From the IMG/VR virus record IMGVR_UViG_2734482572_000001: a DNA stretch of 20,543 nt; one strand, given 5' to 3'. A program made the position numbers and the translations under genes. The DNA comes from a virus. Its lineage: Duplodnaviria; Heunggongvirae; Uroviricota; Caudoviricetes. Shown here in pieces: positions 16,889-20,543 of this stretch (the stretch's first letter is position 1; each line of letters opens with the position of its first letter). The notes beneath the pieces were generated by a model. The model saw nothing but the letters and a program-made list of their open reading frames with translations. It searched no databases and was not told the DNA's origin.

Positions 16889-17110
16889 TGTTCATTCCAC
16901 GGACAAAAACAGAGAAAGGAAACGACAGAGGCCAAAAAGCCCGTTTTCAGCATCTGTCGTTTCCTTTCTTTTCAGGGGGTGTTTTAAATAAAAACATGAA
17001 GTTACGGCGAAGAAGAACGGAAACGCCTTAAACCGGAAAATTTTCATAAATAGCGAAAACCCGCGCGCCTTCCGCCCCGTAACAGGCCGGATCGCCGGAA
17101 AGGACCCGCA
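16889..17110 (-). other. cos site: cosB (about 16889-17065), cosN (about 17066-17077) and cosQ side (about 17078-17110)
   Basis: Reverse complement of 16990-17065 matches the lambda left end after cosN (CGCGGGTTTTCGCTATTTATGAAAATTTTCCGGTT...); reverse complement of 17078-17116 matches the lambda right end (CATCTTTGCGGGTCCTTTCCGGCGATCCGnnnnGTTACG). The 12-nt cohesive-end position reads GGGCGGAAGGCG versus lambda GGGCGGCGACCT. Boundaries are by alignment from memory. Confidence 0.75.
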
Positions 17111-17147
17111 AAGATGAGAATAATTATCACTTGCATTAATATCCGGC

Positions 17148-17319
17148 TTCTTCCACCATCGCACCGGACGGGCGACTATGAGGGACAAAACCGCGCACCA
17201 TAAACGCGGTAAAAACCCGGTGTGCATCGTTTTTGATTATTCCCGCACACTCGCGCAGAAGGAGTTCCCCGTCGGGCTACGGTCATGGTTAATGCGGGAA
17301 TACAGCGACGATACAGCGC
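17148..17319. repeat. Direct repeat copy A, about 172 bp, roughly 93 percent identical to copy B
   Basis: Hand alignment of 17148-17319 against 18933-19103 gives about 10 mismatches and one 1-nt indel; shared core cggtaaaaacccggtgtgcatcgtttttgattat...gttccccgtcgggctacggtcatggttaatgcgg. Confidence 0.85.
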
Positions 17320-17435
17320 ATGATGTGTCAGGCTTGAATACATTTATCCGTTAAAAGGGATATCAGTTAAGTTATCCCGTGTAGGGTATAAGCCATTATC
17401 AAAGCCACTCAGTAGCGAATGGCTTTTGTAATGGA

Positions 17436-17885
17436 CTATTTAATTAGTGATGCTGCGTATTCGATTAGATATAACTTAGGTGCCAACCAGATTTTTAACC
17501 ATGTCATATTGGTTACTACAGCAATAATAAAACTTACCCACAGAACAAAAACTGCTGCTAATGGTAAGATAAGAAAACTAATCTCACCGTTACTTTCCCA
17601 AATCATAGTCGGTTTGTATTTAGGCTTCCCTTCTTCCCATGACCATCCTTCATTATCGAACTTACCAATTTCAACTTTTTGGTACTGTTTCTTCATAAAC
17701 CAAATAACCAGCGGAATTGTTGAAATTGCTATTAATGTTTTAATCAGGCTATCAACCATATTCCATACCAGCAACTGATGAACAACATCCGGAATCTGTG
17801 CCTGACTGAATGCAATGGCGGAATCAATTCCATCGCTGGCCTTCTTCAATAAATCAACAAGAATTTTATTTGCTTCTTCTTGCAT
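17436..17885 (-). CDS. Hypothetical membrane protein, 149 aa, 2-3 predicted transmembrane helices; second gene of the cargo cassette
   Basis: ATG at 17885 with AGGA 8 nt upstream; hydrophobic stretches TLIAISTIPLVIWFM and ISFLILPLAAVFVLWVSFIIAVV; sampled lines are about 33 percent GC versus about 57 percent in the lambda genes; no family recognised. Confidence 0.6.
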   Translation of the reverse strand: MQEEANKILVDLLKKASDGIDSAIAFSQAQIPDVVHQLLVWNMVDSLIKTLIAISTIPLVIWFMKKQYQKVEIGKFDNEGWSWEEGKPKYKPTMIWESNGEISFLILPLAAVFVLWVSFIIAVVTNMTWLKIWLAPKLYLIEYAASLIK

Positions 17886-18009
17886 GTTTATATCCTGTAA
17901 GTTGTAAGCCTGTTCGAAAAAAAATAAACAACTACGAGAGACAGAAAAAATATCTCAGGCTCTCTTTCTATAAGCTTTTAGTTGAGGATGTTCTGCAAAA
18001 CAAAACTGG

Positions 18010-18870
18010 TTAGTTATGTAACTGCTTCCGGAATACAACAGCCGACGTGCTACAACGTAAAATTCGCTTGATTGTGGCAGTTGAGGAAACAGACTTGCAT
18101 TTCTCAACATCATCAATAATGACCACATCCGGTACAGGAATGACGCGGGTATGCAATGTTTTTGCACTAATAACATCACAGCCATTCAGTGGTCGAATAT
18201 CTGCATCTTCAGGCACTACCAGAAGCACACGTTTTTCCGGTGCAGAAAAGCCAGCAGCAAGAGTGCGTGACAATAAAGTCATTCCGCTGCATGGCTTCAT
18301 ACAAATTTCAGAAATATGATTCTTTTCGTCCAAATGATGCTGGACATCATTTTTATCATCACTCAACAACTCTGCTGTTAATACAATCCCTGCTGTCTCA
18401 GATTTCCAGGAAATGCTGATATCCTGATCATCTGCATCAACATCATATTCCATCGAGTAAGGACTAAAGCTACGTCCAACGAACGCATCATTTACCAGTA
18501 CACGCCCACCCTGTCTGACCTGAAAGTCAACGCGCCCTGAAAGCTGATTTGCTGTTACAAGCAATGCCTTTTTTCTTTTTGTTTTATTGCTCATTGCCAC
18601 CAACTGTTCAGCCATCTCTCTTGTCACACTACCAGAAACTCTTTCTTGAATTTTCACAGAAAATTTTCTGGATGTAGTAGCATCGACATTAAAAAATCTG
18701 GATGTCATCAGGCAGTTATTAACAATTGGCATCAGCTCACTTACGATTGTAAAAAATTCCCGGTAAAGCTCATTTTGCTTTTCAACACACAGCTTTCCAC
18801 AATCGTCCAGCTTACGCTCAAGAGCACTTAACCTTTCCATTATTGAATTAATTTTTTGCAACTCTTTCAT
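18010..18870 (-). CDS. Hypothetical soluble protein, 286 aa; first gene of the cargo cassette
   Basis: ATG at 18870 with AGGAGG 5 nt upstream; starts MKELQKINSIMERLSALERKLDD (helical, coiled-coil-like), two C-x3-C pairs (CGKLC, CMKPC), C-terminal VLLVVPEDADIRPLNG...VVIIDDVEK segment. The ORF-track start at 19131 adds 87 codons through repeat B and is not supported. No family recognised. Confidence 0.65.
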   Translation of the reverse strand: MKELQKINSIMERLSALERKLDDCGKLCVEKQNELYREFFTIVSELMPIVNNCLMTSRFFNVDATTSRKFSVKIQERVSGSVTREMAEQLVAMSNKTKRKKALLVTANQLSGRVDFQVRQGGRVLVNDAFVGRSFSPYSMEYDVDADDQDISISWKSETAGIVLTAELLSDDKNDVQHHLDEKNHISEICMKPCSGMTLLSRTLAAGFSAPEKRVLLVVPEDADIRPLNGCDVISAKTLHTRVIPVPDVVIIDDVEKCKSVSSTATIKRILRCSTSAVVFRKQLHN

Positions 18871-18893
18871 CAAAACCTCCTGACAAAGATACC

Positions 18894-18911
18894 GTGCGAC
18901 CACGGTCGCAC
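18894..18911. promoter_or_regulatory. 18-bp palindrome GTGCGACC-AC-GGTCGCAC, candidate operator 24-41 nt upstream of the 286-aa gene start
   Basis: Perfect 8-bp inverted arms with a 2-nt spacer between repeat B and the cassette RBS; a second copy lies at 19114-19131. Confidence 0.4.
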
Positions 18912-18932
18912 GCTCCTGAATACATGCCCTGT

Positions 18933-19103
18933 TTCTTCCACCCTCGCACAGGACTGGCGAGCATGAGGGACAAACCCGCGAATCATTAGCGCGGTAAAAA
19001 CCCGGTGTGCATCGTTTTTGATTATTTCCGCACACTCGCGCAGAGGAGTTCCCCGTCGGGCTACGGTCATGGTTAATGCGGAAATACGGCGACGATGCAG
19101 CGC
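18933..19103. repeat. Direct repeat copy B, about 171 bp, paired with copy A
   Basis: Same alignment as copy A; lies between the DUF4406-like gene and the cassette. Confidence 0.85.
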
Positions 19104-19113
19104 GGTATTTAAT

Positions 19114-19131
19114 GTGCGACCACGGTCGCAA
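19114..19131. promoter_or_regulatory. Second copy of the palindrome (GTGCGACCACGGTCGCAa), about 20 nt downstream of the DUF4406-like stop codon
   Basis: 7-bp perfect arms tgcgacc/ggtcgca; same motif as 18894-18911, placed on the opposite flank of repeat B. Confidence 0.4.
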
Positions 19132-19150
19132 ACGAGAAACAAAGAGATTT

Positions 19151-19462
19151 TTATGCTACAGAGGAACAAGCTGGCGGGTAATTCAGCGTAGTGAATACCG
19201 GCATCTCCATCTTGTATGCGTAATGATACTCAGCAGTTGCTCCAGCAGACGCTTTCCAGCCAGGAAGCATCAAAATAGCATCAGCACAACGAAGCATTGC
19301 AAAGCAAATATCCATGTATTCACGTTGTGTCAGACCATTAGGCAAAGTGGCTGGATTCAAGACAGAGTGACCATGTCGTGACAAACGATCTGCCTCTTTA
19401 TTAAAGGCGTCACGATTAAAGTTCTCATATCCCGTCATTGGCCCGGCAATATAAATTTTCAT
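19151..19462 (-). CDS. Small DUF4406-like protein (nucleoside 2-deoxyribosyltransferase-like fold), 103 aa
   Basis: ATG at 19462, TAA at 19151-19153; N-terminal MKIYIAGPMTG followed by LNPATL and a C-terminal acidic/aromatic segment, a pattern I recall for DUF4406 proteins; assignment is from recall, not a profile search. Confidence 0.55.
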   Translation of the reverse strand: MKIYIAGPMTGYENFNRDAFNKEADRLSRHGHSVLNPATLPNGLTQREYMDICFAMLRCADAILMLPGWKASAGATAEYHYAYKMEMPVFTTLNYPPACSSVA

Positions 19463-19503
19463 TCACTATCCAACAAATTGAGCTCGTTTTTGATACAGAG
19501 GTA

Positions 19504-19941
19504 TTAATTCAGGCATTGCGTCTTGATGTATTCCTGCAAGTAGTTAACCTGCGCAGTTATCCTGTCGATCCCACTTCGGAGACGGTAATAATTGAGTTCA
19601 GCATCTGCTGTAAGTCTTGGGCTTTCTCCATTGCCCATGCCGCTGGCTCCGGTCGTTGACTTTGCACAGGTGGCGGCGACTTGCAGGCGCTTACGCCCAG
19701 CAGAAACATCAGCACGGAGGCTTTCGATAGTCGCGTTAGCATCAGCAAGCTCCTTTGTATATCTGGCATCGAGTTCCGCTACGTCACGTTGACGCTTCTG
19801 CATATCAGCGATTGTGGATGTGGCTTTATCGCGCTGCTCTTTGTAGGCGATGGCGTTATCACGGTAATGATTAACAGCCCACGACAGGCAGACGATGATG
19901 CAAATAACCAGAGCGGAGATAATCGCGGTTACCCTGCTCAT
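19504..19941 (-). CDS. Rz: Spanin inner-membrane subunit Rz (i-spanin)
   Basis: ATG at 19941 overlaps the R stop (ATGA); N-terminal TM helix [23 protein letters not shown] then coiled-coil periplasmic domain; resembles phage 21/DLP12 Rz. The ORF-track start at 19953 is a GTG four codons upstream. Confidence 0.88.
19557..19742 (-). CDS. Rz1: Spanin outer-membrane lipoprotein subunit Rz1 (o-spanin), embedded in the +1 frame of Rz
   Basis: [20 protein letters not shown] lipoprotein signal with lipobox VSAC followed by proline-rich [13 protein letters not shown]; entirely inside Rz. Start could instead be the upstream ATG at 19769. Confidence 0.7.
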
Positions 19942-20435
19942 TGTTGACCCCACAAACAGACTTCACGCTCAATCTCACGACGAGTCATCAGGCCTTTCCA
20001 TTGCTTACCGCCAGCAGATATCCAGCGACGTAGCTGATCACATGCGCCTTTGATATCGCCCTGGTTTATTTTGCGAAGAAGCGTCGATGTTCTGAAATTA
20101 CCAGCACCCACGTTGTAAACGAACGAGTAAAGAGCGCCGCGCGTTGTTTCCGGTATATCGACTTTGATGTACGGGTTAATTTGTCTGGCGACAGTGGCAA
20201 GGTCTTTATTCAGGAGAGCTTTGCATTCTGCTTCGGTATACGTTTTACCAGGCATGATGTCTTTTCCGGTGTGTCCGTGACATACAGTCCATACACCAAT
20301 GATATCTTTGTATAGTATGTAGCTGACACCTTCCAGACCATCGTTACCACCTGGGCCAGTGATTAACACAGATGCTATAGCAACAGCCCCGCCACCAATA
20401 GCAACTGCAACAGCCTTGCGTAATGATGGCGACAT
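19938..20435 (-). CDS. R: SAR endolysin (lysozyme R of the phage 21 / DLP12 RrrD type), 165 aa
   Basis: N-terminal signal-anchor-release segment [23 protein letters not shown] followed by a lysozyme domain; near-identical from recall to R21/RrrD; GAGAGGTG RBS upstream of ATG 20435. Confidence 0.92.
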
Positions 20436-20543
20436 TATTCACCTCTCGCAGCCTTACTAGACTGGCCCCCTGAATCTCCAGACAACCAGTATCACTTAAA
20501 TAAGTGATAGTCTTAATACTAGTTTTTAGACTAGTCATTGGAG

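Follow-up and report, generated by a model that had tools for sequence, protein, structure and literature searches.

[quoted passage not shown] As tabulated in a paper that we reached by a full-text literature search with the 18-mer described below (PMC7205306, Table 4), IR1 and IR4 both read GTGCGACCACGGTCGCAC, and IR2 (GTGCGACCTCGGTCGCAC) and IR3 (GTGCGACCATGGTCGCAC) have TC and AT, respectively, at their centre. N15 SopB forms foci on an array of IR sites (PMC7205306). On a 4×IR array, it also silences a weak promoter ~50 bp away in a dose-dependent manner, and, according to the title of a 2008 paper, late gene expression is facilitated by the N15 Sop system. The SopB protein of the F plasmid binds parS and acts as a CTP-dependent clamp, with up to ~250 dimers and an enrichment that decays over ~15 kb (PMC12477601). 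The F sopC site reads TGGGACCACGGTCCCA, and its central purine-pyrimidine is required (PMC3177203). Each half-site of the N15 sites departs from that of F at a single nucleotide, and specificity is set by residues 179-200 of N15 SopB.

The window, a stretch of 20,543 nucleotides from a Caudoviricetes record (IMGVR_UViG_2734482572_000001), contains a pair of palindromes, here called pal1 and pal2 (Table 1). In pal1, two 8-bp arms, GTGCGACC and GGTCGCAC, form a perfect inverted repeat around a central AC, and pal2 departs from it solely in the outermost base, where C is replaced by A. These were the only matches in a search of the 20.5-kb window that allowed up to three mismatches, and 100 dinucleotide-preserving shuffles of the window sequence gave 0.00 matches to the 18-mer. 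The late genes of this region are all on the minus strand. Along late transcription, the endolysin and Rz-like genes (20435 to 19504) and the DUF4406 gene are followed by pal2, repeat B, pal1, an AGGAGG motif, a cassette of two genes coding for 286 and 149 amino acids, repeat A, cos and the gene of the small terminase subunit. As the first-pass annotation had correctly noted, the two copies are ~220 bp apart and flank repeat B; its distances are also right, with pal2 beginning 20 nt beyond the stop of the DUF4406 gene immediately upstream, and pal1 lying 24-41 nt ahead of the ATG of the 286-aa gene (18870, minus strand) with AGGAGG in between.

Table 1. Features of the pal1/pal2 region, with the N15 sites and the chromosomal loci used for comparison. 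Positions refer to the window unless another sequence is named.
Feature	Position	Strand	Remarks
pal1	18894..18911	.	GTGCGACCACGGTCGCAC; 18/18 match to N15-type SopB site; 0 expected by chance
pal2	19114..19131	.	GTGCGACCACGGTCGCAA; 17/18 vs pal1; 16-bp core TGCGACCACGGTCGCA intact
DUF4406 gene, homologue of N15 gene 57	19151..19462	-	Pfam PF14359, E=3.7e-34; 82.7% to N15 gp57 (tblastn)
Repeat B, duplicated non-coding pre-cos segment	18917..19103	.	bracketed by pal1 and pal2; direct-repeat families D1, D2
286-aa cassette gene	18010..18870	-	phrog_2571 (unknown-function family), PHROG match E=4e-162
149-aa cassette gene	17436..17885	-	phrog_3054 (unknown-function family); ORF list, PHROG match
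Repeat A, native pre-cos copy adjoining cos	17132..17319	.	no SopB site beside it in the window
Probable cosN, 12-nt cohesive end	17066..17077	-	GGGCGGAAGGCG on the minus strand; inferred; ~1.8 kb from pal1
N15 IR1	33479 (N15 genome)		within repA
N15 IR2	35930 (N15 genome)		past Q-like gene 40
N15 IR3	41124 (N15 genome)		directly ahead of the annotated late promoter
N15 IR4	45561 (N15 genome)		past DUF4406 and dcm genes, ahead of gene 59 and cos
Chromosomal loci with orphan sites	L358 20035-20272 and L364 (NZ_CP083701.1, ompW prophage); L359-L361; L363

The pal1 18-mer is identical to IR1 and IR4 of N15, both of which have been used in experiments, and it is the same as the N15 genome site at 45561-45578. 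The N15-type site, defined as GTGCGACC-NN-GGTCGCAC with the 16-bp core TGCGACCNNGGTCGCA, is matched throughout by pal1 and at 17 of 18 positions by pal2, with the core intact. The central dinucleotide on the + strand is AC in both, a purine-pyrimidine of the kind that the work on F SopB calls for. Pal1 is perfect in every relative checked, and the plasmid relative pCAVP367-48 has the same pal2 variant as the window. The positions are equivalent as well: in every N15-like locus with a DUF4406 gene, a site follows this gene at a distance of 20-53 nt, or of ~1 kb if dcm lies in between as in N15, which makes pal2 the positional counterpart of N15 IR4. We conclude that pal1 and pal2 are very probably N15-type centromere (parS/sopC-like) sites, predicted from their sequence to be recognised by SopB.

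In the N15 record, the position of IR4 is annotated solely as a putative rho-independent terminator stem-loop, an annotation in favour of a different reading, in which the palindromes are hairpins of the late transcript and serve as terminators, attenuators, RNase III sites or mRNA stabilisers. The first-pass annotation had set hairpins aside on the grounds that a 2-nt loop is too short. This dismissal was wrong, because opening the central C-G pair leaves a 4-nt loop on a 7-8 bp stem, and the resulting RNA hairpins are both stable, with folding energies of -14.5 kcal/mol for pal1 (z = -2.9) and -8.1 kcal/mol for pal2. In a loose terminator scan, pal1 passed with 5 T in 8, fitting a weak intrinsic-terminator pattern on the minus (late-transcript) strand, but pal2, which has no U-tract, failed. 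Further support for a hairpin comes from the integrative phage 2B8, which carries two symmetric substitutions (GTGCAACC..GGTTGCAC) that leave the site palindromic (GTGCAACCACGGTTGCAC; L002 93-110, LR595859.1 48654-48671), and from another contig (L197) with a single-change, G-U-compatible intermediate, GTGCGACCACGGTTGCAC. The 2B8 variant could reflect chance, self-correction of the palindrome or selection on a hairpin. Against a role in RNA, the 16-bp core is invariant across contexts, with no covariation, one site falls inside the coding sequence of repA, and the sites are found in either orientation with respect to transcription. In N15, the central dinucleotide varies (AC, TC, AT) but the stem does not, which is the known pattern of SopB sites. 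There is no match to an Rfam family: a scan of positions 17500-20543 at E<=10 returned noise matches to eukaryotic families only. A hairpin function of the palindromes is, on this evidence, very unlikely.

A scan of IMG/VR with GTGCNNCCACGGNNGCAC gave 138 matches, 62 of them the exact palindrome, which is far commoner than any other variant. In N15-like viral contigs, the exact 18-mer turns up in both orientations and next to at least 12 unrelated kinds of flanking sequence, often several times per contig; these contexts include positions within repA, after the Q-like gene, ahead of the late promoter and, presumably, after the capsid gene. The motif is therefore not specific to the cassette. 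When genome contigs were scanned with the 14 specified bases of the core TGCGACCNNGGTCGCA, the matches listed were just chance palindromes in GC-rich genomes. A perfect SopB site immediately upstream of a GCCCGCAGCAGCGGGTTTTT terminator was seen in L049, L079 and ~12 other N15-like contigs of IMG/VR. In L079, this site lies ~7.6 kb beyond the IR4-like site, and thus, judged by distance alone, downstream of the major capsid gene, where N15 has no site.

These contexts bear directly on the interpretation offered by the first-pass annotation, namely an operator for a dimeric DNA-binding protein with possible looping, for which it proposed a search for further copies of the motif and for a cognate helix-turn-helix regulator. 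Both are found: the copies in the N15-like contigs described above, and the helix-turn-helix protein in SopB, a ParB-family protein encoded together with SopA in the closest relatives of the window. The part of the claim that stands is a site for a dimeric helix-turn-helix protein encoded elsewhere, which would by its sequence be SopB; the part that does not is an operator dedicated to the cassette. Such an operator, at which a regulator would loop the 220-bp interval and whose main role would be control of the 286-aa and 149-aa genes, gains some plausibility from the placement of pal1 24 nt upstream of the cassette ATG, from the fact that pal1 moves with the cassette into integrated prophages and is intact there, and from the silencing by N15 SopB of a promoter near an IR array, which makes an effect on neighbours physically plausible. 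It should, however, overlap or adjoin the cassette promoter and co-occur specifically with the cassette, and this is not what was found. Besides the contexts unrelated to the cassette, including the one within repA, there are cassette-free loci that have the site, such as N15 IR4 and the cos-adjacent site of 2B8-type phages, and some loci have retained the cassette with a degenerate pal2. No sigma-70-like promoter was predicted on the minus strand from pal2 to the cassette start (19150 to 18871). We regard a dedicated cassette operator as very unlikely.

An N15-type centromere requires a partner protein, and the nearest relatives supply it. In complete E. coli genomes, each of the six best whole-window matches is a record of plasmid size, and the top match is the linear plasmid pCAVP367-48 (98.9% over window bases 1-20428). 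Phage PhiR46_1, with annotated telL and telR ends, is 96.7% identical to the window. Both encode a protelomerase, an N15-type RepA replicase, SopA and a ParB-family protein. NCBIfam places their SopA in the equivalog PRK13705 and their ParB in PRK13698, and the latter is 73-74% identical to N15 SopB, with a nearly unchanged helix-turn-helix region. Each of the two relatives has five sites, one in repA, one after the Q-like gene, one ahead of the late promoter and the pal1/pal2 pair, and thus dispersed single copies at conserved N15-equivalent positions. On the linear map of pCAVP367-48, the five sites all fall between 7.9 and 18.8 kb, on the side of repA, with sopAB at the far end. The window is most likely part of an N15-like linear phage-plasmid. 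The sopAB genes lie outside its 20.5 kb, so that the cognate protein is inferred from pCAVP367-48 and PhiR46_1, which have the genes for SopA and ParB, and the assignment rests on sequence identity and on these relatives.

If the replicon of the window likewise carries sopAB, a SopB dimer would recognise the 16-18 bp inverted repeat through its helix-turn-helix and, by analogy with F SopB, would switch to a CTP-dependent clamp, spread on the kilobase scale and build a partition complex. At cell division, the SopA ATPase would rely on this complex for segregation of the linear plasmid prophage, which has a low copy number. Within the dispersed set of five sites, pal1 and pal2 would be the two that lie in the lysis-to-cos interval, and would bind SopB and act in partition as such.

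The last ~86 nt of the window (20458-20543) correspond to a very high-copy element present at 26,321 places in 5184 E. coli genomes, in at least 5000 plasmids, and at 100% identity in Shigella dysenteriae plasmids. They are most likely the end of an insertion sequence, presumably of an IS2-like element. This end lies just upstream of the endolysin gene, where relatives have the holin, so the prophage may be lysis-defective. The exact endolysin/IS junction at the right end of the window was in no record of the searched collections, complete E. coli genomes included.

The 301-bp pal1/pal2 locus is also found on chromosomes, which account for ~11 of its ~25 full-length matches in complete E. coli genomes. 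One copy that is 100% identical lies in a prophage integrated at ompW, which has an integrase and lacks ParB, SopA and protelomerase (Table 1). As an identical locus exists in an integrated prophage without ParB, the presence of the sequence does not prove its use, which is a weightier objection than the hairpin. The sites in the replicon of the window might then be functionless relics of an exchange of lysis-to-cos modules between N15-like and integrative lambdoid phages, the 18-mer merely marking mosaic junctions. The sequences flanking the site on either side do vary independently among loci, and the site hence coincides with mosaic junctions, whose exchanges it may even promote. In integrative phages the sites have decayed or been deleted, and the insertion-sequence end at the holin position of the relatives indicates that the element may be defective. 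Against this stand the plasmid-sized N15-like replicons, up to 98.9% identical, that make up all six of the best full-window matches, and the two 16-bp cores, which are both intact in the window. We therefore consider it unlikely that the pair is a relic.

Pal1 is perfect in all five chromosomal loci checked, which could be due to recent transfer or to a second role. Pal2 has decayed to GAGCGACCACGATCGCAC in three of the five, all of one lineage, whereas it is still perfect on a plasmid that shares their flank variant. Among 2B8-type lambdoid contigs, the pre-cos site is decayed (TTGCGACCACAGTCACAC) in 11 and deleted in 4; 2B8 itself encodes an integrase and no ParB, and most lambdoid contigs that have the repeat have no site. 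In this small sample, the patterns are consistent with maintenance of the site by selection in the presence of SopB and with drift in its absence. Orphan sites might also titrate SopB from a co-resident N15-like plasmid.

The two repeats provide a possible origin for the pair. Repeats A and B align over 172 nt with 91.3% identity. A reading of this ~190-nt repeat as a gene (58-aa ORF, 17178-17354) was rejected because of an in-frame stop in copy B and a frameshift between the copies. The repeat is a conserved non-coding segment and very widespread: 3181 of the 5426 complete E. coli genomes contain part of it, with 4891 chromosomal places in total. Its match in phage lambda lies at ~46868-46974, with bor and lambdap78 on either side, and N15 lacks it. 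The position of cosN given in Table 1 was deduced from a neighbouring CGCGGGTTTTCGCTATTTATGAAAATTTTCCGG block, which also served to mark cos in the relatives, on the basis of lambda/N15 cos homology. Just after repeat A, an inverted repeat followed by TTTTG (17388-17439, + strand) runs antisense to late transcription; it is kept in 2B8 and YDC107_1 and resembles the terminator of a short + strand transcript.

In 2B8-type lambdoid phages, the order is repeat, site, ~90 nt and cos. The number of sites in the lysis-to-cos interval turns over among relatives, from one to three: in two IMG/VR contigs (L024 and L232), a third SopB site, again perfect, follows repeat A ~120 nt before cos, and in L232 and L214 pal2 is degenerate (GTGCGATCGTGGTCGCTC). 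Given the order in 2B8-type phages and the third site at repeat A in L024 and L232, the window looks like the product of a unit duplication. A unit consisting of the pre-cos repeat and its site would have been duplicated, with the two-gene cassette placed between the copies; pal1 would be the extra copy, which arrived with the duplicated unit when the cassette was acquired, and the site beside repeat A would since have been lost in the window. The cassette itself (17436-18870, minus strand), flanked by the 91%-identical direct repeats, is carried both by N15-like plasmids and by integrated lambdoid prophages that differ in their head modules, and is partly deleted in YDC107_1. Its 286-aa and 149-aa proteins have no match in Pfam or PADLOC, and it is a candidate accessory or defence module.

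The placement of one site 24 nt before the cassette start, and of the pair ~1.8 kb from cos, might point to roles of the lysis-to-cos SopB sites beyond partition, in silencing or insulation, as recombination junctions that move modules, or as chromosomal orphan decoys. Since N15 SopB silences a weak promoter near a 4×IR array, a side effect on the cassette is conceivable, and in the plasmid-prophage state SopB nucleated at the pair might shut down or insulate the cassette together with the late and packaging genes. The 18-mer, invariant as it is, could likewise serve as a junction at which modules of site and cassette recombine between N15-like plasmids and integrated lambdoid prophages, and orphan sites on chromosomes could act as centromere decoys that destabilise incoming N15-like phage-plasmids. 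We view such additional roles as unlikely.

The identification as N15-type centromere sites gives the palindrome pair a concrete and testable identity. Annotation pipelines either give such sites no label or, as in the N15 record for IR4, describe them as terminators. Their recognition is of use in distinguishing plasmid from integrated prophages and in mapping partition-based incompatibility. The palindromes are most likely, judged by sequence, elements of a known kind, with only minor details that are new. The novelty is modest and consists of five sites in the lineage instead of four and of a duplicated site-plus-repeat unit around an accessory cassette; also new is the circulation of intact orphan copies in integrated prophages that have no ParB.

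Compared with known systems, the locus is closest to the IR sites of N15. It shares with them the 18-bp sequence of IR1 and IR4 and the arrangement as single dispersed sites rather than tandem ones, as well as the location of IR4 after the DUF4406 module, between the lysis genes and cos; the other three sites of the relatives are at the IR1, IR2 and IR3 positions. In contrast to N15 with its four sites, the replicon family of the window has five, and the lysis-to-cos interval holds two of these, 220 bp apart and bracketing a duplicated pre-cos repeat. N15 is also without the two-gene cassette that adjoins the sites here, and the cognate ParB of the relatives is just 73-74% identical to N15 SopB. 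The F sopC site (TGGGACCACGGTCCCA, against TGCGACCACGGTCGCA here) is similar in its 7-bp arms, its central A-C and its recognition by a helix-turn-helix, and F SopB spreads and can silence neighbouring genes. However, sopC consists of 10-12 tandem 43-bp repeats at one locus beside sopAB, whereas the palindromes are single copies far from sopAB, 220 bp apart and with no 43-bp periodicity; moreover, one base per half-site differs, and N15 sites are not used by F SopB. The chromosomal parS sites of ParB/Spo0J resemble the palindromes as 16-bp inverted repeats of which several copies are scattered over the origin-proximal part, but have another consensus sequence and belong with another ParB subfamily. 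Intrinsic terminators, finally, have in common with pal1 and pal2 a GC-rich stem of 7-8 bp with a 4-nt loop, and N15 IR4 is annotated as one; they differ in the U-tract, which is absent at pal2 and weak at pal1, whereas the palindromes keep an invariant sequence across contexts and orientations.
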